From a virus, in IMG/VR virus record IMGVR_UViG_3300009548_000002: a stretch of DNA of 64,000 bases; one strand, written 5' to 3'. Each line of letters opens with the position of its first letter. Position 1 is the stretch's first letter. Made by a program: the position numbers and the translations under genes. Positions 7,724-50,235 of this stretch are shown one piece after another. The notes under the pieces were generated by a model. That model was not told the DNA's origin. It searched no databases and worked only from the letters and a program-made list of their open reading frames with translations.

Positions 7724-8019
7724 CGAACGAGAGATTCCCGAAATCCATAAAGGCGCTCCGCGCGAAGTTCTCACGCGGCACGCTCGTCCAGGCGCGCTTC
7801 GTCTTGGGCGATGGCGACGTCGTCGAATTCCAGGGGCTCCTCGAAGGTGGCTACTTCGACAAGGTCGTCACGAGCGTGCGGACGTTCGCGAACCCCGAGC
7901 CGAAGCACGGGGACTACGTGGCCAACTGCACGCATCCCGACTGCGTCGCCATGAAGGCTGAGCCCGGCTACGTGCCGACGAACCACGGACACGCCCGACC
8001 TCGTCAGAAAACCGGGTGA
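7720..8019 (+). CDS. Hypothetical small protein
   Basis: ATGA overlap. Confidence 0.45.
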   Translation: MTNERFPKSIKALRAKFSRGTLVQARFVLGDGDVVEFQGLLEGGYFDKVVTSVRTFANPEPKHGDYVANCTHPDCVAMKAEPGYVPTNHGHARPRQKTG

Positions 8020-8032
8020 TCCACGTCGATGC

Positions 8033-8284
8033 TTGTCGATGCCACATCCCGAAAAAAGCCCGCTCGATCTTCCGACGCCAAAAACCGACCGACAGCGTGC
8101 GCGGATCTTGATGGACGCACTTGCCTGGATCGGGGAGAACGCTCGGTGCGTCGAGGCCCGTTGGCACGCGAGCCGCGCGCTTTCGATCTGCGAGACCGAG
8201 TCGACCGAGTCGACCGAGTTGCTGAAAGGACCGCAACGTGACCGAAGACGAGCTTCAAAGCGCGCACGATCGAGCGTTCCGTAA
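8033..8284 (+). CDS. Hypothetical small protein carrying a 9-bp tandem repeat (GACCGAGTC x3, ESTESTE)
   Basis: Better GC3 than the overlapping frame 8029-8241. Confidence 0.3.
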   Translation: MSMPHPEKSPLDLPTPKTDRQRARILMDALAWIGENARCVEARWHASRALSICETESTESTELLKGPQRDRRRASKRARSSVP

Positions 8285-8558
8285 CAAGCCAAACGTCATG
8301 GCGTCTACGGTCTGCGGTTGCTTCTACTGTCGAAAAACGTGTGCACCGAGCGACGTTCGAGAGTGGGTGCGAGAAGTCGAGGGTGAAAACACTGCCCTCT
8401 GTCCGCATTGCGGCATCGACGCGCTCATCGGCGATGCTTCGGGTTTGCCGGTGACCGACGCGGCGTTTCTCTTGGAGATGCATGCGCATTGGTTCAAGAA
8501 GGCAACGACGTTCACTGCCGCGGAACTCGCCGCAATCGCTGGAAGGAACGAAGTGTGA
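8238..8558 (+). CDS. Zinc-finger small protein
   Basis: CGCFYCRKTC...CPHCG. Confidence 0.45.
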   Translation: MTEDELQSAHDRAFRNKPNVMASTVCGCFYCRKTCAPSDVREWVREVEGENTALCPHCGIDALIGDASGLPVTDAAFLLEMHAHWFKKATTFTAAELAAIAGRNEV

Positions 8559-9130
8559 GCGTCGAAGCTTCCGCCCCGCTCCGCGTGCAGCTCCGCACGA
8601 AGAGGTATTTCTCGTGCCCGTCGTGCGGTAAGCACGAGTTCGAGGTCGAGCACCTGTTCGAAGACGAAATTTCCGGCGAGCGTGAGGTCGGGCCGTGGCA
8701 ATGCGACGAATGCGATGCGACGTGGATGGTGCGCGTCCGTCCGGGCCACGGGACCCTCGACGTCGTCCCCGCGCCGCAGCGGTCGTGGCACAACTGGGAC
8801 ATCCTCGAACTCACCGGCGCCGGCAAGACGATCATCCGCCTCGTCGTTCCCGGGCTCTCGTTCGAGAAGGACCGGAAGCTCGACGAAGAACTCGAGCAGA
8901 AGCGCTTCTACTACGAGGAGAACACGTGTCCGACGAACTACCTCCGTCGGGCGACCCTCGTCGCGTCGGGCGACCATGAGCATTGGGGTGACGACGACCC
9001 GCACGGGCTCTTCCGCTTCGCCACGACGTTCGAACACCCCCTGCGTCCGCATCAAGTCTGGAGCAGCAACGAGATGAACACCCTCGGCGAAATCGCGTGG
9101 AAGACGCTCGCGAAGTTGGGGCGATCGTGA
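8556..9130 (+). CDS. Zinc-ribbon protein, about 191 aa
   Basis: CPSCGKHEF...CDECDATW; GTG start overlapping upstream stop; strong GC3. Confidence 0.5.
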
Positions 9131-9611: not shown

Positions 9612-10801
9612 TGAGTGACGAACGAGAAAAATATTTCGTCCCTGAGAACGAGGTCGCTGGGAGCCGGCGCGAACACCTCTCGCCGTCGGGAAAATACAAA
9701 CTCGTCGTGTCGTCCTTCTCGACGCGCGAAGGCGGATGGAGCTACACGCGCGGCAAAGCCTTCAAGATCGGCTCGGATGAACCCATCGCTGTCGTCGATC
9801 GCAATTACTCGGCGTTCCCGTTCTCGTGGATCGAAGATCATCCGAACGGACACGCCTTCCTCATCGCGGGTGAGGATTACCAAGGACAGACCGTCGTCGA
9901 GCTGGATACCGGCAAGCGCCGCGACCACCTCGGCGAAGAGGCCGAGCAGGGTATCGAGTTCTGCTGGTCCGAGCACCGGTTCGATCCGAAGAGCATGCTG
10001 CTCGTCGTGTGCGGCTGCTACTGGGCATGCCCGTACGAGTTCCGCGTCTTCGACTTCATGAACCCGATGGCGGGATGGCCCGAACTCGAGATGTTCGGAC
10101 CGAGCGCCGAGAAAGACGATCGCGAATGGGTCGAGGAAGATCGCAAGTGGCCCGAGATCGTCGCTCCTGATTTGGCAACGCTTGGCCCGACCTTCGTTCG
10201 CACTTTCCAGACGGCGAATTACGACGAAGACGAAGACGAGAGCGACAAGGACGACGAAAGCAACAAGAGCGAGAAGGCGAAGAAGAACCCGGCAGAGATC
10301 CGCGCGATCAAGACTTTCAAACGCGTGGGTCCGAGGCTCATCTTGCAAGACGAATGGGTCTCGGAAGCCGAGAAGAAGTCGCGCCACGAGCGCGAAGAGG
10401 GTCGCAAGAAATACGAGGCCGAGGTCGCCGCCTTCCGCGCGAGCGACCCGCTCTACCTCGCGTACATGAACGAGCTGAACGCGTTCAGGCTCACATGCGA
10501 CGCGGACCATGAGCCCGAAGAACACGATTGGCACGGCATCACACACGACACTTGGTGTCCCGACTTCAAGAAGAAAGAGCGCCGGTGGGGTCGCCGCATT
10601 TACCAGCGAAAACGCAACGAGGCCGGCGTTCTCGAGTCCAGTAACCCCACGATCGAACTCGAATGGGCCGTAGAGACAGGCCCCGTCAAGCTCACGGTGT
10701 GGCACGGCGACGACGGCCCGAAGGTCGAACTCTTCTACGAGCACTCTGTAGATGGAATTCAGAAAGCGTTCGCGCGAGCGCGTGAAGAGATCGCGCGTTG
10801 A
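9611..10801 (+). CDS. Hypothetical protein, about 396 aa, acidic central linker
   Basis: Start MSDEREKYF overlaps the upstream stop; strong GC3 throughout. Confidence 0.6.
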   Translation: MSDEREKYFVPENEVAGSRREHLSPSGKYKLVVSSFSTREGGWSYTRGKAFKIGSDEPIAVVDRNYSAFPFSWIEDHPNGHAFLIAGEDYQGQTVVELDTGKRRDHLGEEAEQGIEFCWSEHRFDPKSMLLVVCGCYWACPYEFRVFDFMNPMAGWPELEMFGPSAEKDDREWVEEDRKWPEIVAPDLATLGPTFVRTFQTANYDEDEDESDKDDESNKSEKAKKNPAEIRAIKTFKRVGPRLILQDEWVSEAEKKSRHEREEGRKKYEAEVAAFRASDPLYLAYMNELNAFRLTCDADHEPEEHDWHGITHDTWCPDFKKKERRWGRRIYQRKRNEAGVLESSNPTIELEWAVETGPVKLTVWHGDDGPKVELFYEHSVDGIQKAFARAREEIAR

Positions 10802-12333
10802 GCTTTCCCTTCCTTCACCGCGAGACGCCCTCGGTCGTGCGCGTCCTTCATCCGGACATCGACATCAAGCTTTTCGCGAACGAGTCGGTCTCCGTGGAGG
10901 CCGACGCATTCGAGCAGCTCATCGAGTTCGCCGACGTGGCCCGCGCGATCCGAGAAGTTCGTGAGCGGGACACGCGCGGCGCCGGCGATCCGTTCTTCGG
11001 CGACGCCGCGCCCGCGATCGAACGCGTCGTGCTCACGCCGGACTTTCACAAAGGCTCGGGCATTCCCGTCGGCACGGTGGTTCAGGCAAAGAACGTCGTC
11101 ATCCCGCAAGCGATTGGCAACGACGTCTGCTGCGGGATGCGGCTCCTCGCGACCGATCTGCCGGCCGAGTCCCTCGAGCCGCACTGGCCCGCGATCCAGA
11201 AGCGTCTCCGCGCGATCTTCTTCGAGGGCGAACGCGACATCCCGATGTCGCCGCGGCAGCGCGAAGCGGTCCTCCGTCATGGCCTACCAGGTCTTGTGGA
11301 CACGTCGGACGACAATCTCACGCGAGGGATCTGGCAGCGCTTCGATCCGAAGTCGCAGCGGGATGACGTCCACCACGTGCACGGCGGCGGGATCCTTCCG
11401 ACAAGGAGACTCTTCGGGTTCGAGAACTTCATCCGCTCGTCGGGCAACATCGACGGCCGCGACCCGCAGATCGGATGCGTCGGCGGCGGCAATCACTTCG
11501 TCGAGATCCAGCGCATCGACGCGCTCTACGAGGGCCACGCGGCTCGCGCGTGGAACCTCGTCCGCGGCAACGTCGCCATCATGGTGCACTCGGGCTCCGT
11601 CGGGATCGGGCACGCTGTCGGTGGGCACTTTATGGATCGCGCGCGCGAGATCTTCCCGAGCGACATCGCGTCGCCGAAAGGCGGCTTCTTCCCACTGCCG
11701 ACGGAAGGACCGAGATGCGAAGAGGGACTCTTCTATCTCGACGGGATGGGGAACGCTGCGAACTTCGCCTTCGCGAACCGGCTCTTTTTGGGTCTCATGG
11801 CTCTTCGCGCCATCGAAGAGGCGACAGGGCTCAGTATCGATGCGCGGCTCGTTTACGACGCGCCCCACAACCTCGTCTTCAAGGACAACGAGTCGTGCCT
11901 CCATCGCAAAGGCGTAACCCCGGCGCACGGGCCAACGGACGACGGCCAAGGTTCCGAGTGGCTCGGCAAGCCTGTCATCATCCCGGGGTCCATGGGCGCG
12001 CCGAGCTACCTTCTCGCGGGCGAGGAGAACGATGAAGCACTCTCAAGCGCGTGTCACGGCGCCGGCCGGAGTCTCTCACGCGGAAAAGCGGCACATGTTC
12101 CGCGCTCCGAGTACCTCGAATCCGTGGAGCGCCTCCGCATCGTCGGGCCCGTCGATCCGAAGTCGCCGATGATGCGAATGAGGAAAGACATTCTCGATAA
12201 ATACGAGAAGCGCATGATGGAGGAGGCGCCTTACGCCTATAAACCCATCGAGCCCGTCATCGACTCTGTCGTGGACGCGCACGTTGCGCAGCGTGTGGCG
12301 AAGCTCTTCCCGCTCTGCACCGTGAAAGGGTGA
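10798..12333 (+). CDS. rtcB: RtcB-family RNA ligase (joins 3'-phosphate/2',3'-cyclic phosphate to 5'-OH)
   Basis: RtcB metal/GMP motif series: DVCCGMR, GGGNHFVEIQ, HSGSVGIGH, LHRKG, CHGAGR; TTG start overlapping the upstream TGA. Confidence 0.9.
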   Translation: MSFPFLHRETPSVVRVLHPDIDIKLFANESVSVEADAFEQLIEFADVARAIREVRERDTRGAGDPFFGDAAPAIERVVLTPDFHKGSGIPVGTVVQAKNVVIPQAIGNDVCCGMRLLATDLPAESLEPHWPAIQKRLRAIFFEGERDIPMSPRQREAVLRHGLPGLVDTSDDNLTRGIWQRFDPKSQRDDVHHVHGGGILPTRRLFGFENFIRSSGNIDGRDPQIGCVGGGNHFVEIQRIDALYEGHAARAWNLVRGNVAIMVHSGSVGIGHAVGGHFMDRAREIFPSDIASPKGGFFPLPTEGPRCEEGLFYLDGMGNAANFAFANRLFLGLMALRAIEEATGLSIDARLVYDAPHNLVFKDNESCLHRKGVTPAHGPTDDGQGSEWLGKPVIIPGSMGAPSYLLAGEENDEALSSACHGAGRSLSRGKAAHVPRSEYLESVERLRIVGPVDPKSPMMRMRKDILDKYEKRMMEEAPYAYKPIEPVIDSVVDAHVAQRVAKLFPLCTVKG

Positions 12334-31807: not shown

Positions 31808-32008
31808 ATGTTTTTGGCGATGAAGTCCAGATCTCGATCTCGATCGCTCACGCAGGAGGAGCGAGAAGAGGCGCGTCGGCGCGAGCATGCGTACCGTGAG
31901 GCATGCAGGCTCGAGGACGAAGCGAACGTCGTCATCAAGCCGCTCACGTGGTGGAGACGCTTCTTCTTGTGGCTTGGCAAGACCTTCACCCGATGGGGAG
32001 CGACGTAA
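31808..32008 (+). CDS. Hypothetical small basic protein
   Basis: Track ORF. Confidence 0.3.
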   Translation: MFLAMKSRSRSRSLTQEEREEARRREHAYREACRLEDEANVVIKPLTWWRRFFLWLGKTFTRWGAT

Positions 32009-32011
32009 ACA

Positions 32012-33396
32012 TGGCGAACATCACCCTCGTCCTCGGTCTCGGATTTGGCGATGAAGGCAAAGGCGGCTGCGTAGATTTTTTGGCGCGTCACCACGACGCT
32101 CGGCTCGTCGTGCGGTTCAACGGTGGAGCGCAAGCGGGTCATAATGTCATCGACCCAAACGGACAGCACCACTGCTTCTCGCAGTGGGGATCGGGTACCT
32201 TCGCGGGCGCGCGGACGCTCCTGTCGCGGCACGTGCTCGTGAATCCGATCTTCGCCGAGAGCGAGGCGAGGCACCTCGAGTCCGCCGGCGTCCGGGATCC
32301 CTACGCGCTCCTCTCGGTCGAGCGACTCGCGCCCGTCACGACGCCGTTCCACGTCGCCGCGAACCGGTGCCGCGAGCTTTCGAGGCAAGCGGCGAGCGGC
32401 AGCGTGCACGGGAGCTGCGGCATGGGCGTCGGCGAGACGATGGAGGATCTCGTGGAGGGGAGAGAGACCGTTTGGGTGCGCGACTTCGAGGACGACACCC
32501 CGACGCTCAAGCGGAGACTCTTCCGCATCCAGGAGCGGAAGCGCTCCGAAGTCCTCCAGCTCGCGGCCCTCGATCGCCGCTCCCCGCGCGTCCTCCAAGA
32601 ACTCTTTGTGCTCGAGGACCCGAGCATCGTCGACGCCGTCTGCGCGTCGTACACGAAGTTCGCCCGTAAAGCGTCGATCGTGAATCAAGATTTCCTCGAG
32701 CGCGAGCTGGACGCTCCCGGCCACGTCGTTTTCGAGGGCGCGCAGGGCGTCCTCCTCGACGAGTGGTGGGGCTTCCACCCGCACACGACGTGGAGCACGT
32801 GCACCTTCGACAACGCGACGGAGATCCTCGGCGCCGAGCGCGCGGGCCGCGCTCGGCGCATCGGGGTGCTCCGCACGTTCCACACGAGGCACGGAGCCGG
32901 CCCCTTTCCGACGGAGAATAAGAGCATGGACGCGCTCTCGGCGGACGACCACAACAAGCGCGACCCTTGGCAACACGATTTCCGCACCGGAGCCTTCGAC
33001 CTCCTCCTCGCGCGGTACGCGCTCGACGTGTGCGGCGGGTGCGACGGCCTCGCCTTCACGCACCTCGACAAGCTCGAACGGCGCGCGAGCCTACCCGTCG
33101 CCATCGGGTACTACGTGGACGGCGCCAAGATGGTGCGCATCCCGCACCGGCGCCCGAACGATCTCCAATACCAAGAGCGACTCGGCCGGCAGCTCGCACA
33201 AGCGCAACCCATCTATGCCTCCGCGGATCTTGGCGGCGAGCGCATCGCCATGCTCCACGTGGAAGGACTCGCCGAAATGCTCGAGACTCCGCTTGCGATC
33301 ATCTCACGCGGCAAGACCGCTGCAGACAAGATCACTTTGGGTGAAGGCGCGCATGCTTCCCCGCGCCCGCAGTTCTCCACGCCGCCACCCAACTGA
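32012..33396 (+). CDS. Adenylosuccinate synthetase-family enzyme (PurA/PurZ-like), divergent in substrate-binding motifs
   Basis: GLGFGDEGKGG P-loop; GGAQAGHNV; FEGAQGVLLDEWWG; HTRHGAGPFPTE. The IMP loop reads GSCGMGVGE (canonical TTGRGIGP), the aspartate loop WQHDFRTG (canonical RRRRTG), and the guanine motif THLD (canonical TKLD). Start at MANITLVLG inside track ORF 31903-33396. Confidence 0.85.
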
Positions 33397-44216: not shown

Positions 44217-45123
44217 TCACGTCTCGGCGCGCTTGCGCCGGACAAGCTCGGTGACGAGGCCCGCGGAAGGACCGTGCGCGCGAAAGTAGACGATGGATTT
44301 TCTTCCCGGCCTCGCGCAGAGTTGGCACTCGAGGCACGTGAGCTTATGCGTCTGCGCTGGGCACGAGACGAGCTTGCGGCCCTCGGGCGTCCGGTCCGGG
44401 ACCTCCGCGCGCTCGGGCACGACGACCACGACGGGCGCAATGCCGAGCCCAGCCGCGGCGTCCGCCTCTTCGATTGAATCGGTCGAGAGGTTCACGACGA
44501 ACCCTTGCCGCGTGGCCTCGGTGATCGCGCGCCGGTTCTTCTTCCGGACGAGCACCTGCCACACCTTCGGAAGGACCGGCTTGTGCGTGAACGTGAAGCC
44601 GCGTCGTCCCGCTTGGGCGCGTGCGAGCTGCTGGAGCCTGCCCATGTCGATGGCGTTGCCCTCGCCAGGGAGATCGCCTGCCTCGTTGAAGCGCCAGAGC
44701 GTTCCTTCCTCGAGCGCAGCGACCTCGCAGAGGAAGTCGTCCCACGGCATGCCGCGCTCGCGGACGCGATCCCAATGGTAGCGATCGAAACCGTTGTCGG
44801 CGTAGCAGCCGGCCTCGTAGAACATGCACGCGGGCGGGCACGTCCCGCGCTCGGAGTACGTCGTCGGGATGGGTCCGAGCTTACGATTCCCGCTCCGGGG
44901 GACGAAGGAGATGCGTCCGGCGCTCGCGGCATCTTTCCTCTTCGGTCTCGCGTCGAGCTTCTCCGCGGGAGTCTTCCGCTCCCAGTCGCCGTATCGCTTG
45001 TTGCGCTTGTCGCTGCATGCGTTGCAGAGCGCGTCATGCTCGCGTCCGCGCCGGACGAACGCCGCGCGGGGTTTGTTTCGGTGGCAGCGCGCGCAATTTT
45101 TGGCCGCCGTGGACCCCGCCCTC
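44217..45123 (-). CDS. Zinc-finger protein, about 302 aa, encoded immediately downstream of the HDAC-like gene
   Basis: CARCHRN...CNACSD at the N-terminus; GTCPPACMFYEAGCYADNGF; LTCLECQLC; N-terminal extension of track ORF 44217-45803 rejected. Confidence 0.5.
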
Positions 45124-46015
45124 ATGGCTCTTTTTCGCAGTAGACGCGCGCGCACTCGCGCATCGTGTTGTCGTGGACCTCGAGCACTTTCGGGATGCTT
45201 CCGTCCTTCTCTCGCTGGTAGCCGCCGGCGAGGTTCCACGCGACGGGGATCTCGGCGGCGGGGATCTCGGCGGCGGAGAGCGCGTCGAAGACGATCGCGT
45301 CGCGCCGCCGAAGTTGCTCGGTCGTGAGCCAGCCGCCGTACGGGTCGTCGATGTGCGGGTCGGCGCCGGCTTGGTAAAGGACGACGTCCACCTTGTCGAG
45401 GATCATGTGCGCGAGGACCTCGGGGAGTCCCTCGTCGAGGAACGCCTCCGCCTGATCGGGCCTCGTCCAGTTGAGGCCCGCGGTGAAGTGCGTGATCCAA
45501 TCCGCACCGAAGCGGTTCTTGATGTTCACGGTGCCGTTGCCGTAGTGCATGTCGAGGTCGAGGATGCCGACGCGCGGGATGCCGTCCGCCTTCAACGCGA
45601 AGGCGGCGACCATGAGGCCGTTGAACGTGCAAAAGCCCTCCGCGCTCGCGTAGCCCGCGTGGTGGAAACCCGAGCACGGCGCCGCGGCCGCGGCGCCGGT
45701 CGAGATCGCGAGGCGTGCCGCCTGGAGCATCGCGCCGGACGTGTACGGGAGCGCGGCGGCGACCTCGGGCGACTTGTTGCCGAAGCCGTTGGGCTTTTTG
45801 CATCTGAGGATGTCTTCAGCCCAGTCGACCGCATGCACACGCGCGTAATCGCTGAGCGTCACGGGCCGCGGTTCGAGGATCGTGATCGGGAATTTGTTCT
45901 GCCACGAGGCCACGACCTCCTTCGGCTTCTTCGCGCTCGGAGACTCGCAACCGGAATCGGCGACCATCTTCGGCGTGTAGAAGACCGGAATCTTGAAGAG
46001 CTTGCCTCTCGCCAT
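45122..46015 (-). CDS. Histone-deacetylase-family (HDAC/AcuC/acetylpolyamine amidohydrolase) zinc hydrolase
   Basis: HHAGYASAEGFCTFNGL; VGILDLDMHYGNGT (D-x-D-x-H metal site); VVLYQAGADPHIDDPYG; AGGYQ catalytic Tyr. Confidence 0.75.
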   Translation of the reverse strand: MARGKLFKIPVFYTPKMVADSGCESPSAKKPKEVVASWQNKFPITILEPRPVTLSDYARVHAVDWAEDILRCKKPNGFGNKSPEVAAALPYTSGAMLQAARLAISTGAAAAAPCSGFHHAGYASAEGFCTFNGLMVAAFALKADGIPRVGILDLDMHYGNGTVNIKNRFGADWITHFTAGLNWTRPDQAEAFLDEGLPEVLAHMILDKVDVVLYQAGADPHIDDPYGGWLTTEQLRRRDAIVFDALSAAEIPAAEIPVAWNLAGGYQREKDGSIPKVLEVHDNTMRECARVYCEKEP

Positions 46016-46210
46016 TTTTCACCCTCTTTCGGAACCGGTCGCCCGCAATTTTCGTCGCCATGCGCTTCCGGACGAGCCTTTCTCGGGATCCGGACGACCG
46101 GACGCGAAGGGCGGGACGCACCCACGCATTTGACATGCCCGAACCCGATTCGTCAAGGACAGTTGGTTGTGATCGGGCTTGCATCACACGCAGTTACTCG
46201 TTACAGTATG

Positions 46211-46417
46211 GGCATGACCAAGAAAGCGAAGCCCGCAGCCAGCCACGCCTCCACCATCCAGATCACGTTCCGGATTCCCGAGGAGTGGCTCGAGTGGGCC
46301 GACGAACTCGCGTCGAAGCACTCGGCGCCGGGCCTCGTCCTCACGAGGACGGATGGTTTCCGGACGGCCATGGCCGCGGGGTTCGAAAAATACGGCAAGA
46401 AGTCGGCGACGCGGTGA
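46211..46417 (+). CDS. Small ribbon-helix-helix-like protein
   Basis: STIQITFRIPEEWLEWADELASKH pattern; excellent GC3; divergent from the HDAC operon. Confidence 0.4.
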   Translation, partial: GMTKKAKPAASHASTIQITFRIPEEWLEWADELASKHSAPGLVLTRTDGFRTAMAAGFEKYGKKSATR

Positions 46418-47234: not shown

Positions 47235-48173
47235 ATGCTGGGAGCACGAGCGCGTGCGCCAGATGCACATAAGCGATCGATCATGACCGAGAAGCGGCGT
47301 CCCGGCGTGCGTATCACTCAGGCCTCCTCACTCTATCCCTCCAATGATCGAAAACTATCCCGTGAGGAACTTGGTCCATGGCTCCCGAAGCCCTTGCCTC
47401 GACGCCGCCGCTCTCCATTTCCGCCCCGCCGCGTCTTCGGTTACTGCCGAGTCGATGGTGACTCGATTGCCGACCAGGAGGCCACCATCAACGCAGCAGC
47501 ACATGCACGAGGCCTGAGTCCTACCAGAATTCTCAAGGAGGCGAAGTCGGGCGTCGGTTGGAAGGCGGAGACACGCGACGAGATCCACGCCTTGCTCGCA
47601 GACATCCGCGAGGGTGACCTCGTCCTCGTCGACAAGCTCGCACGCTGGTCTCGCGATCCCGACTTCATGTACGAGACCGTGCGAGAGATCATTCAAGCGA
47701 AGGCTGACATCCACTTCATCAGCGAGGACATCGACCCCGCGACGGCGCGGGGAGCTGAAGAACTGTCGCTTCGCATCGCGTTCGCCCGACGGGCGCACGC
47801 GCATTTCCGGCAACGCACCAACCGCGGCCGCGAGCGCCTCCGCGACGCGGGCTACCGTGCTGAAGGGCTCCCGTCGTTCGGTTACAGGCGCGGTGAAGGG
47901 GCTACGCTAGTCGTGGTCGAAGAGAAAGCTGCGATTGTGGCGCGAGCGTTCGCGATGTGCATCTCAGGCAGTTCCGTGATCGAGATCTCTCGAGCACTCG
48001 GCCTTGGACGCAGCATCGTCAGTAAGATCCTTCACAACCGCATCTACATCGGTGAGCTGCGCGACTCCGACGGCAAATGGATCCGCGCGAAGCATGACCC
48101 GATCGTGGATCCCGACGTCTTCGCCACAGCGGCCGCCGCAATCGAGGCTCGCCGGTGCGCCAAGCCGCGATGA
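47235..48173 (+). CDS. Serine recombinase (resolvase/invertase catalytic domain plus recombinase domain); start uncertain, possibly TTG about 47388
   Basis: VFGYCRVDGDSIADQ catalytic motif; LPSFGYRRGEGATLVVVEEKAAIVARAF recombinase-domain motif; low GC3 in the first ~50 codons of the track ORF. Confidence 0.7.
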   Translation: MLGARARAPDAHKRSIMTEKRRPGVRITQASSLYPSNDRKLSREELGPWLPKPLPRRRRSPFPPRRVFGYCRVDGDSIADQEATINAAAHARGLSPTRILKEAKSGVGWKAETRDEIHALLADIREGDLVLVDKLARWSRDPDFMYETVREIIQAKADIHFISEDIDPATARGAEELSLRIAFARRAHAHFRQRTNRGRERLRDAGYRAEGLPSFGYRRGEGATLVVVEEKAAIVARAFAMCISGSSVIEISRALGLGRSIVSKILHNRIYIGELRDSDGKWIRAKHDPIVDPDVFATAAAAIEARRCAKPR

Positions 48174-48873: not shown

Positions 48874-49294
48874 CTACTCCACCTGCGGGAGGACCCGCTC
48901 CGTCATCGAATCGCGAACGATGATTTCGCCGAAGCGCGAACGCAGTTGGCCATCAGTGGCGCCCGTGAGCAGTTGGATGATCGGACGAAGCACGGAAAGG
49001 CGAACGTGCTCGTCGCTCACGCGCGTCTCATGCGCGATGAAGACGCGCGGGTGCGGGCACACCGCATCTCCCAGCATTTCCCGGACACGCGCGAGCGACC
49101 GCGGGGCGAGAGCGTACGTCTCGCCGTCTCGGCTAGCGCTGCGGTAGACCACCAAGGGTACGCTCGCTCCGCTTGCGGAGAGTTTCTCCTGCGCGAGGCG
49201 CTGGACCTCCCGGAGTTCGCCCGTCTCCTCGAAGAGAGACTCGAGCGGCGATCCGACGTTGGGATGGTTCGGGAGTTTCGGGAAGTTCTTCATG
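48874..49294 (-). CDS. Hypothetical protein, about 140 aa
   Basis: Start MKNFPKLPNH; C-terminal part of ORF 48874-49470. Confidence 0.4.
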
Positions 49295-50057
49295 GCCTTC
49301 TCTGCATGCTTTGCAAATCGATCGAGCTTGCCCGAACAAGTCGATTGCGAAGAAGTGGACGGTTCCGCCAGTGATCGTTGCGAACCTTGGCGTAGCCTTC
49401 CCGATGCGCCTTCATACGTCCAATGATGCCCTGGGCATCCTCCACGCGCACGTAGACGCCCTCCATCCAATCCGAATCGTCCGTCTCATCCATCGGCCGC
49501 GTGATCCCGACGCGTTTGGCTTCTTCAGCCAAAACGCTGCGCCACGCGGGCGTCTTGTAGAAACTCTTCCCGATGAACGAGCCGAACGCCGGCGCTTTCC
49601 CGAACGGGCCCGACCAAAGGCAAGACACGACGACCACGTCGCACGCGGCGAGCAGATCGTCACGATGAGCGACGCCCAGAAACCGTTCGCGTTCCCTGTC
49701 GAAGACGTCGTAGCCGAGCAGCCAGTCGGGGAGCGCGTCGTAATAGGCCTTGTGCTTCGCGAAACACCACTCGCCGTAAAGCACGTAACGACAGCCGAGC
49801 GCGTCGCGAAGGGCGTCCACGCGCTCCGCGGCCCACCCGTGAAAAGGTGCGAATTGCCGCTCTGAAAGTCCACCCCTCAAGATGTGACCACGACTCTGGA
49901 GCCGAATCTCGCCTTCCTCGAACCAGATGCCGACGTTGGCGCCGTCGACCTTCTCCTCCACGACGACGACGCGCGCGTGCTTCCACGCCTCATAGATGTC
50001 CTCGGTCGCGAGCGACGTGAGTCTGGGTGTCTTCGGGAATTTGATCGCGTCGCCCAT
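49290..50057 (-). CDS. ATP-dependent RNA/DNA ligase-family nucleotidyltransferase (probable RNA ligase)
   Basis: Motif I VVVEEKVDGANVGIW (KxDG lysine-adenylate site); YVLYGEWCFAKHKAY resembles motifs IV/V. Confidence 0.6.
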   Translation of the reverse strand: MGDAIKFPKTPRLTSLATEDIYEAWKHARVVVVEEKVDGANVGIWFEEGEIRLQSRGHILRGGLSERQFAPFHGWAAERVDALRDALGCRYVLYGEWCFAKHKAYYDALPDWLLGYDVFDRERERFLGVAHRDDLLAACDVVVVSCLWSGPFGKAPAFGSFIGKSFYKTPAWRSVLAEEAKRVGITRPMDETDDSDWMEGVYVRVEDAQGIIGRMKAHREGYAKVRNDHWRNRPLLRNRLVRASSIDLQSMQRRP

Positions 50058-50235
50058 GGCTCAAGTTCTCTCGTCTCTCGGTCCTCGATTACGCAAGAGC
50101 ACCTATCCAAACCACGGTCGCTGCAACCGCACCGCAGAAACTCCGTACAAAAATTCTCGAGAAAATCGGTCTAATCATGGGCTCTCGTTGATGGCACGAC
50201 AAAAATAATTTCTGTAAATCCGCCAAGATAAGTTT

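Follow-up and report, generated by a model that had tools for sequence, protein, structure and literature searches.

A histone deacetylase-family gene of a probable jumbo phage belongs to a subfamily found in large phages and on bacterial chromosomes

Introduction

What use does a large phage have for a histone deacetylase (HDAC)? The question is raised by an open reading frame (ORF) within the 64,000-nucleotide stretch of viral DNA analysed in this study (IMG/VR record IMGVR_UViG_3300009548_000002; below, the window), which encodes an HDAC-like protein and whose stop codon overlaps the start of a gene for a cysteine-rich protein. Zn-dependent enzymes of the HDAC family have been well studied in eukaryotes, and their mapping in bacteria is just beginning. 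Surveys of the bacterial and of the class IV HDACs are silent on phages (PMC11532494, PMC13325672), and a full-text literature search, whose coverage was incomplete, returned no paper on phage-encoded enzymes of the corresponding Pfam family (PF00850). An earlier note on this DNA had suggested that the deacetylase, co-transcribed with a zinc-finger protein, could act on lysine-rich proteins of the phage, on host nucleoid proteins or on acetylpolyamines, all of which it called speculative. The analysis described below led us to a different reading, which we consider probable: the ORF encodes a competent Zn2+ amidohydrolase of the class IV branch, carried by a mobile gene that stands beside its neighbour (a member of the DUF7227 family) through the accident of an indel, and acting on an ordinary bacterial substrate.

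An HDAC-family protein with an intact active site

The protein contains FHHAG...GFCTFNG, DLDMHYGNGT, QAGADPH and AGGYQ, i.e. all the motifs that had been quoted as the full signature of HDACs and acetylpolyamine amidohydrolases (APAHs), and it matched Pfam Hist_deacetyl (PF00850) above the cut-off (87.5 versus 27.9 bits; E = 1.3e-24). In HMMER alignments these motifs align residue for residue with the HDAC-family structures 9RJE and 9GKV; the Asp, His and Asp of the zinc site (D155, H157 and D219), on whose alignment with HDAC structures the earlier note had staked the assignment, are among the aligned residues. Furthermore, no variation was seen among 164 family members at H118, H119, D153, D155, H157, D219 and Y266. 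The start codon (ATG) is preceded by GAGGG (46022-46026), which stands six bases 5' of it. Searches of NCBIfam and PHROGs with the protein gave no match. These observations support an HDAC-family protein with all catalytic residues intact, encoded on a phage-like element; the enzyme is very probably active.

There is good support, short of proof, for assigning the window to a jumbo phage, a large phage of soil or peat. Exactly the same HDAC-like protein was found on the 261.5-kb ENA contig ERZ27250124 k141_837401, of which the window forms part, and on a 193-kb JGI contig; the genes stand in the same order on both, and nearly all its neighbours on these contigs are short ORFs without a Pfam match. 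The window also encodes a terminase-like ORF, an RtcB ligase and a kinase-like protein; no capsid or tail genes were seen inside its 64 kb.

The HDAC gene contains a perfect 15-nt tandem duplication (GCCGCCGAGATCCCC x2; 45245-45274, minus strand) that encodes AAEIP-AAEIP. This insertion, which falls on the protein surface ahead of the last strand, is unique to the window protein in the family alignment.

Fold and position within class IV

An AlphaFold2 (AF2) model of the protein, computed with 36 homologues (predicted local distance difference test, pLDDT, 88.8; predicted template modelling score, pTM, 0.91), has the arginase/deacetylase alpha/beta fold. A Foldseek search with this model yielded 465 PDB matches at E<=0.001; those listed were all HDAC-family structures with template modelling (TM) scores of ~0.7-0.79, headed by 9GKY, 9GKV (VcHdaH) and 9GZ5 (Leptospira HDAC11; TM 0.75-0.79 for these three). 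The best full-length PDB matches at the sequence level were class IV enzymes, i.e. 9RJE (the top match, with E-values of 1e-18 for the single sequence and 3.5e-25 for the profile), 9GKV and 9GZ5. Of these, 9RJE is a clade A class IV HDAC11 of Chlamydomonas, 9GZ5 (like 9RJD) is a clade B class IV enzyme of Leptospira (PMC13325672), and 9GKV is VcHdaH of V. cholerae, a lysine de-decanoylase of cluster 5b (PMC11532494).

The two clades of class IV differ at defined sites. Clade B is marked by (i) an HPFD motif at the rim, (ii) a Glu at human position 94, which contacts the peptide backbone, and (iii) an aromatic foot-pocket gatekeeper, a signature residue required for the deacylation of fatty-acyl-lysine; its members strip medium and long fatty acyl groups off lysine, whereas clade A carries HRFD, Gly and Thr/Ser at the corresponding sites (PMC13325672). 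Neither clade has been reported from phages (PMC13325672).

All four catalytic motifs of these clades are common to the phage subfamily, which is further characterised by the conserved motifs SPSAxKP, NGFGN, GFHHA, GFCTFNG, DLDMHYGNGT, YQAGADPH and LAGGYQ. However, its signature is mixed. The gatekeeper before the HH pair is Phe (F117) in 163 of the 164 family sequences and Tyr in the remaining one, as in clade B, while an apparent Gly takes the place of Glu94, as in clade A. In the latter case, N76-G77-F78 of the phage protein aligns with I-G-F of VcHdaH, and the equation of G77 with human E94 is a reading by eye, not a computed alignment. Neither HPFD nor HRFD was found at loop L1 in the subfamily, in which S25-P26-S27-A28 is invariant near the expected site; SPSA corresponds to the L1 motif by position only, the HMMER alignments to PDB chains missing the N-terminus. 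Given this mixed signature, we carry over no substrate from either clade.

VcHdaH (9GKV/9GKY) resembles the window protein in its fold and its length (~300 aa, without extra loops), and is the top structural and second-best sequence match. It likewise has an aromatic gatekeeper (GGYHH, compared with GFHH in the phage), the tyrosine of GGGY/AGGY, and a Gly-Phe aligned to G77-F78. Nevertheless, the identity is only ~23%, and the invariant rim motifs SPSAxKP and NGFGN are peculiar to the phage subfamily. Judged by its motifs, the subfamily appears to be a lineage of its own, filed under class IV (HDAC11/HdaH, "cluster 5") by overall similarity.

Distribution among phages and bacteria

Relatives of the HDAC-like protein are numerous. 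A word-indexed search detected >6700 proteins at E<=1e-10, of which the best 120 are 59-88% identical to the query, ~283 aa long and in many cases encoded on contigs of 100-570 kb; among the metagenome relatives listed, hundreds show 60-70% identity, on contigs of up to 570 kb. An exhaustive profile search gave 561 clusters (50% identity) at E<=1e-30 and 3139 at E<=1e-10. Relatives were located on 191 IMG/VR viral contigs and in 372 stretches of GTDB species genomes. Three phage-like contigs bearing relatives were inspected, and all proved to be dense arrays of small ORFans.

Among deposited phage records, relatives occur in only 6 of 50,697 (four huge uncultured phages and Rhodococcus phage E3, gp202). 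E3 gp202 and the proteins of LR756511, LR756504 and LR756501 share with the window protein the PF00850 domain and a phage origin, and the matches in these records were the sole ones. In contrast to the tight subfamily described here, they are 25-40% identical to the window protein and fall outside it. E3 gp202 is annotated as "putative histone deacetylase" only; its gene sits directly ahead of tail-fibre genes.

The subfamily is also chromosomal in Myxococcota, Gammaproteobacteria and Betaproteobacteria. At nine loci of Dokdonella and other Lysobacterales the HDAC gene lies on the chromosome between hemW and rdgB-rph-yicC. Its neighbours on an Archangium contig of 9.4 Mb are genes for a divergent LysR-type regulator, a nitronate monooxygenase, a peptide deformylase and an amine oxidase. 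A divergent LysR-type regulator immediately upstream of the chromosomal HDAC gene was identified at ~18 loci of Myxococcota (L093-L107, L124, L138, L149-L152, L171), a layout typical of small-molecule catabolic genes; it is a hint that the enzyme serves, in the cell, an inducible pathway for small molecules. In a neighbour-joining (NJ) tree the clade of the window phage is sister to a cellular clade, whose internal branching tracks taxonomy, and the deeper branches are all viral.

Clustering of the genes around the phage HDAC loci revealed contexts specific to individual lineages and no common partner. In one viral lineage, for instance, DnaB is encoded ~5 kb upstream of the HDAC gene. Another phage lineage (IMG/VR L034-L048, L058, L059, L063, L064, L078; HDAC 42-45% identical) has the gene inside a tail-gene module, in which genes for the tail sheath, a gp19-like tail tube, a 142-aa protein, the HDAC and an HNH endonuclease, then four more conserved ORFs, follow one another in a conserved order. 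In the most distant viral lineage (L083-L092; ~35% identity) a 244-aa NrdR-like zinc-ribbon protein, a Cys-rich protein distinct from DUF7227, is encoded directly before the HDAC. In view of the indel described below, the HDAC gene behaves as a mobile single-gene cassette, and these varied contexts (DnaB, the sheath-tube tail module, the NrdR-like gene) are in keeping with it. Many large-phage lineages possess the subfamily as a stand-alone, mobile auxiliary gene, and it is present on bacterial chromosomes as well. What is new is this numerous class IV HDAC lineage of phages and bacteria; the kind of system was already known.

Some unusual family members were also recorded. Ten longer ones, inspected for domain fusions, contained PF00850 alone, apart from one weak TPR match, and were uninformative on function. 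Another variant, P0011 (L006, 6001-7179; 392 aa), combines the HDAC domain with a C-terminal DUF2442 and is encoded on 186-kb phage-like contigs; the longest contig given for P0011 in the search tables has 261,538 bases. A Polyangiales chromosome fragment (L099, a 792-kb contig) carries two PF00850 paralogues (7899-8864 and 9619-10632), ~750 bp apart.

The pair with DUF7227 results from an indel

The stop codon of the HDAC gene does overlap the start codon of the Cys-rich ORF, in the sequence ATGA, as the earlier note had described. In order to establish whether the pair recurs, 80 viral and 80 genome HDAC loci were scanned (+/-8-10 kb) with the hidden Markov model (HMM) of DUF7227. A DUF7227 gene lay within 10 kb of the HDAC gene at 1 of the 80 viral loci (L055; 3.4 kb away and not adjacent) and at none of the 80 genome loci, and the notion of a conserved HDAC-DUF7227 module was abandoned. 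The closest relatives give the same picture: downstream of HDAC genes with 85% and 71% identity stand small ORFs of other kinds, and DUF7227 genes with 81-89% identity have no HDAC gene upstream.

A sibling phage (L176) makes the origin of the arrangement visible. It has no HDAC gene and keeps the 82-aa gene (95% amino acid identity) on one side, and DUF7227 (86%) with the downstream 55-aa gene (82%) on the other. At the DNA level the window and L176 are near-identical up to ~46080 and again from ~45090. The HDAC gene is bordered by two copies of an imperfect direct repeat (Table 1), and the single copy in L176 is a hybrid of the left and the right one. The HDAC gene is thus a recent ~1-kb indel between short direct repeats, which arose either by insertion of the gene with a short duplication or, in the sibling, by deletion through recombination between the repeats. 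HDAC and DUF7227 are co-transcribed and translationally coupled as a result of the indel event, probably without functional partnership. A scan for promoters and terminators around this operon found nothing exceeding shuffled expectation. An operon of "HDAC plus zinc finger" that is the accident of a recent indel is a caution against over-reading such pairs.

The DUF7227 protein

The 302-aa product of the adjacent gene matched DUF7227 (PF23872) over residues 74-291 with 244.7 bits (cut-off 27; E = 1.1e-72). DUF7227 was detected in 184 phage records and also in metagenomes; cyanophages and Pseudomonas phages of the Pakpunavirus type (PAK_P1) commonly carry it. The full-text search, with the same incomplete coverage, returned no paper on DUF7227, and the neighbouring genes in the annotated records of PAK_P1 and Rhodococcus phage E3 are all hypothetical. 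A seemingly short DUF7227 variant in L004 turned out to be a difference in gene calling, the full ORF being present.

All three Cys groups announced by the earlier note are present. The label of zinc-finger protein suits the first ~45 residues, in which the four Cys form conserved knuckle pairs, but not the other Cys groups, which lie inside the barrel domain of DUF7227. The N-terminus additionally gave a weak match to phrog_1035 (endonuclease VII). The structural model, a confident one, shows an apparent partial (beta/alpha)6 barrel like that of radical S-adenosylmethionine (SAM) enzymes, in which the Cys triad falls between a strand (88-91) and a helix (112-119); this would be the position at which these enzymes bear their cluster motif. 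The C-terminal four-Cys cluster may constitute a second metal or Fe-S site, as its invariant cysteines suggest.

DUF7227 is related to the phage proteins GP88 and Gp37/Gp68 (DUF5131), from which it differs in having CX3CX6C instead of CX3CX2C, as well as an additional invariant four-Cys cluster and the probable N-terminal zinc ribbon. The protein had no match to Pfam Radical_SAM (PF04055) at E<=0.01, nor does it contain the canonical CX3CX2C of radical SAM enzymes, and for these reasons its membership of that superfamily is not established. A sequence search of the PDB returned no match. DUF7227 is probably a separate, divergent radical-SAM-like and Fe-S-dependent enzyme, with a metal content predicted from its cysteines, and in itself a widespread phage family resembling an Fe-S enzyme.

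Table 1. Coordinates of the features discussed, numbered along the window
Feature	Position	Strand	Evidence or remark
132-aa ORF with a KTKAKK-rich tail, KKKTKKAKTKAKKTKAKKTKAKK	18804..19202	-	open frame, high third-position GC
Very basic 52/53-aa ORF, doubtful gene, downstream of DUF7227	44032..44193	-	open frame; GGGAG upstream, a plausible ribosome-binding site
DUF7227 gene, predicted N-terminal zinc ribbon and radical-SAM-like partial barrel	44217..45125	-	302 aa
C-terminal four-Cys cluster (C255, C264, C267, C270)	44316..44363	-	invariant in 40/40
Cys triad C96-x3-C100-x6-C107-Y-A after the first barrel strand	44805..44840	-	invariant in 40/40
CxxC...CxxC (C11, C14, C34, C37), probable zinc ribbon	45015..45095	-	each Cys at least 90% conserved, 40 homologues
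Right copy of the direct repeat, GGCGGCCAAAAATTGCG, within the 5' end of DUF7227	45092..45108	-	sequence alignment
ATGA stop/start overlap, HDAC to DUF7227	45122..45125	-	TGA 45122-45124, ATG 45123-45125; read from the sequence
HDAC-like Zn-dependent deacylase gene, class IV-like subfamily	45122..46015	-	297 aa; PF00850, PDB matches, AF2 model
Catalytic tyrosine Y266 in LAGGYQ	45218..45220	-	invariant except one gapped row; aligned to GGGY
D219, third zinc ligand, in QAGADPH	45359..45361	-	invariant in 164 sequences; aligned to GVDPH of 9RJE
Metal-site motif D153-L-D155-M-H157, Zn ligands D155 and H157	45545..45559	-	invariant; aligned to LDLDVH (9RJE) and IDSDVH (9GKV)
Tandem catalytic histidines H118-H119 after gatekeeper F117	45659..45664	-	invariant in 164/164; aligned to HH of 9RJE and 9GKV
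Imperfect direct repeat 5' of the HDAC gene, left copy, GGCGACGAAAATTGCG	46044..46059	-	aligned with the right copy and L176
Divergent 82-aa gene, left border of the indel	46169..46417	+	95% identical in HDAC-less sibling; tblastn against L176 and L177

Possible substrates and alternative readings

By analogy with the family, D155, H157 and D219 would bind the zinc that activates a water molecule, H118 and H119 would serve as general base and acid, and Y266 would stabilise the oxyanion; an N-acyl amide would thereby be hydrolysed to a free amine and a carboxylate. A comparison of the pocket in 18 sequences of the window clade, 66 other viral and 80 genome sequences revealed that the catalytic and pocket positions are identical across the groups. 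One and the same pocket in phage and cellular copies implies that the substrate is already present in ordinary bacteria, and constitutes the strongest argument against evolution of the enzyme towards the lysine-rich proteins of the phage itself. It points to a general bacterial N-acyl amide (an acyl-lysine or a small amine), and not to those proteins, as the putative target.

The idea that the deacetylase acts on lysine-rich phage proteins fared badly on other counts too. The ORF with the lysine-rich tail exists as an open frame, but 26 kb separate it from the HDAC gene, and no link between the two was found. The second proposed protein, the basic one of 52 aa, is likewise encoded by an open frame, but is doubtful as a gene: it was left uncalled in three assemblies (L001-L003) and has no counterpart in L176.

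As to what the substrate might be, an N-acylated small amine, e.g. an acetylpolyamine or another N-acyl metabolite, has in our estimation nearly an even chance. An acyl-lysine on host proteins, the removal of which would provide an NAD-independent reset of host acylation, is a serious candidate with a chance only slightly lower, and something else altogether is improbable. The pairing with LysR in Myxococcota leans to a small-molecule, inducible function, and the Phe gatekeeper leans to acyl-lysine. Several points weigh against the reading that we prefer. We infer both the activity and the substrate of the subfamily, and with SPSA in place of HPFD and an apparent Gly for Glu94 the substrates of HDAC11 and VcHdaH may not transfer to it. 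Clade A, to which the best sequence match belongs, was inactive towards acyl-lysine peptides and is suspected of acting on small molecules (PMC13325672). Phage contigs assigned to metagenome-assembled genomes may account for some of the "genome" loci. The NJ tree is rough and midpoint-rooted, which leaves its root and the direction of transfer between phage and cell uncertain. Finally, the ATGA overlap does mean joint expression, and leaves some room for a functional link in this particular phage.

Such a link would be strongest if HDAC and the Cys-rich protein formed a functional module, with the "zinc finger" steering the deacetylase to acetyl-lysines of the H1-like phage protein or of host nucleoid proteins. 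We regard this as very unlikely, and the lack of conservation has already largely refuted it. The translational coupling through ATGA would fit, but the HDAC gene is a recent indel, and the pair is absent from 79 of the 80 viral and all 80 genome loci and from the nearest relatives of either gene. Similarly, the nearly invariant N-terminal CxxC...CxxC of DUF7227 could bind nucleic acid, although the protein is an enzyme-like barrel and not an adaptor; and the lysine-rich-tail ORF is indeed present, yet the chromosomal copies have the same pocket without these phage proteins, and the basic 52-aa ORF is doubtful. It is hardly credible that the HDAC gene is a bacterial chromosomal one and the window host DNA or a mis-binned fragment. 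Dokdonella, Archangium and others do have orthologues with 50-60% identity on their chromosomes, but the window sequence recurs on the 261.5-kb and 193-kb contigs, made up almost entirely of short ORFans with a terminase-like gene, RtcB, an RNA ligase and a tRNA; its relatives reside on the 191 IMG/VR contigs, some amid tail sheath/tube and other phage genes, and housekeeping genes were not found in the 64 kb.

A narrower proposal, that the enzyme is specifically an APAH and that the freed spermidine or putrescine neutralises the large packaged genome and aids translation, seems to us rather unlikely, although acetylpolyamine chemistry as such may be within its reach. Giant-virus APAHs of the same superfamily act exactly in this way, and those of Klosneuvirus, Tupanvirus and Hyperionvirus resemble the window protein in being virus-encoded, with a proven pro-viral metabolic role (PMC9992855). 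However, they belong to the APAH branch, serve viruses of eukaryotic hosts, are longer and possess the polyamine-specificity loop, and the window protein matches true APAH structures weakly and partially (2.7e-8 for 6PHR and 3.6e-7 for 3Q9B over residues ~93-168; for the chains 6PHR, 3Q9B and 9GKZ the match is restricted to residues ~91-168, with E-values of 1e-6 to 3e-8). Cluster 4, in which alone bacterial polyamine deacetylases have been placed, is characterised by an extended L2 polyamine-specificity loop, a head-to-head dimer and a length of ~340 aa or more (PMC11532494), whereas the window protein has 297 aa and family members typically 280-290; a length of 283-297 aa leaves no room for this dimer-forming loop. 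Moreover, a survey of polyamine genes in the virosphere has APAH homologues from giant viruses (Imitervirales) only (PMC9992855). The LysR-type regulator divergent from the orthologue at the ~18 Myxococcota loci speaks for an APAH, as do the non-peptide substrates proposed for the best PDB match, the clade A HDAC11 (PMC13325672), and the flavin amine oxidase downstream in one Archangium locus, but an amine oxidase neighbour occurs at just 2 loci, and neither polyamine nor GNAT genes were found among the ~40 larger window ORFs scanned, the small ORFs lying outside the scan.

Returning to the preferred reading, of a mobile enzyme acting on an ordinary bacterial substrate, we can also envisage, as a distinctly improbable extension, a role in counter-defence or host takeover, in which the phage HDAC would erase an acyl mark that the host puts on an amine in stress or defence. 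Candidate marks would be (i) acetylation by GNAT-type toxins, (ii) stationary-phase lysine acylation of the translation and transcription machinery, and (iii) acetylation that sequesters polyamines. A zinc enzyme would work on when the NAD+ depletion of abortive infection cripples deacetylases of the sirtuin type. If true, this would explain why the same pocket as in the cellular enzyme has been kept in many unrelated lineages of large phages. In any case, a tight HDAC subfamily common in large environmental phages, with the same pocket as chromosomal genes of Myxococcota and Proteobacteria, makes phage and cellular copies comparable, and this comparison could reveal the natural substrate of the class IV-like lineage and what large phages gain from it.

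Other genes of the window

Two RNA ligase genes were identified in the window, one of the RtcB type (10786-12333, plus strand) and one of the PF09414 family (49290-50060, minus strand), and in two related phages (L006 and L005) genes for Ro60/TROVE and PTH2 proteins lie near the HDAC gene, as if phages of this group were equipped for RNA repair. An adenylosuccinate synthetase homologue (31900-33396, plus strand) matched PF00709 (E = 1e-61) and phrog_1211 ("aminooxy adenylosuccinate synthetase"). It retains the GDEGKG loop of PurA-type enzymes. Among phage proteins the best matches, with ~37% identity, are "PurA-like" ones of mycobacteriophages; beside this PurA-like identity, PurZ (2-aminoadenine genome) was considered as an alternative.

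ARAGORN predicted two adjacent tRNAs (42341-42501, plus strand). One is a tRNA-Tyr(GTA) (42427-42501; 56 bits in Rfam), which has a 9-nt stretch at the 7-nt anticodon loop of the model. The other (42341-42425; 85 nt), reported as "tRNA-???" with the four-base anticodon actc, falls below the Rfam gathering score. Finally, a small serine recombinase (~296-312 aa, with Resolvase and Recombinase domains) is encoded ~1.2 kb away from the HDAC gene, on the other strand (47235-48173, plus strand); it may be either an invertase or an integrase of the short kind.

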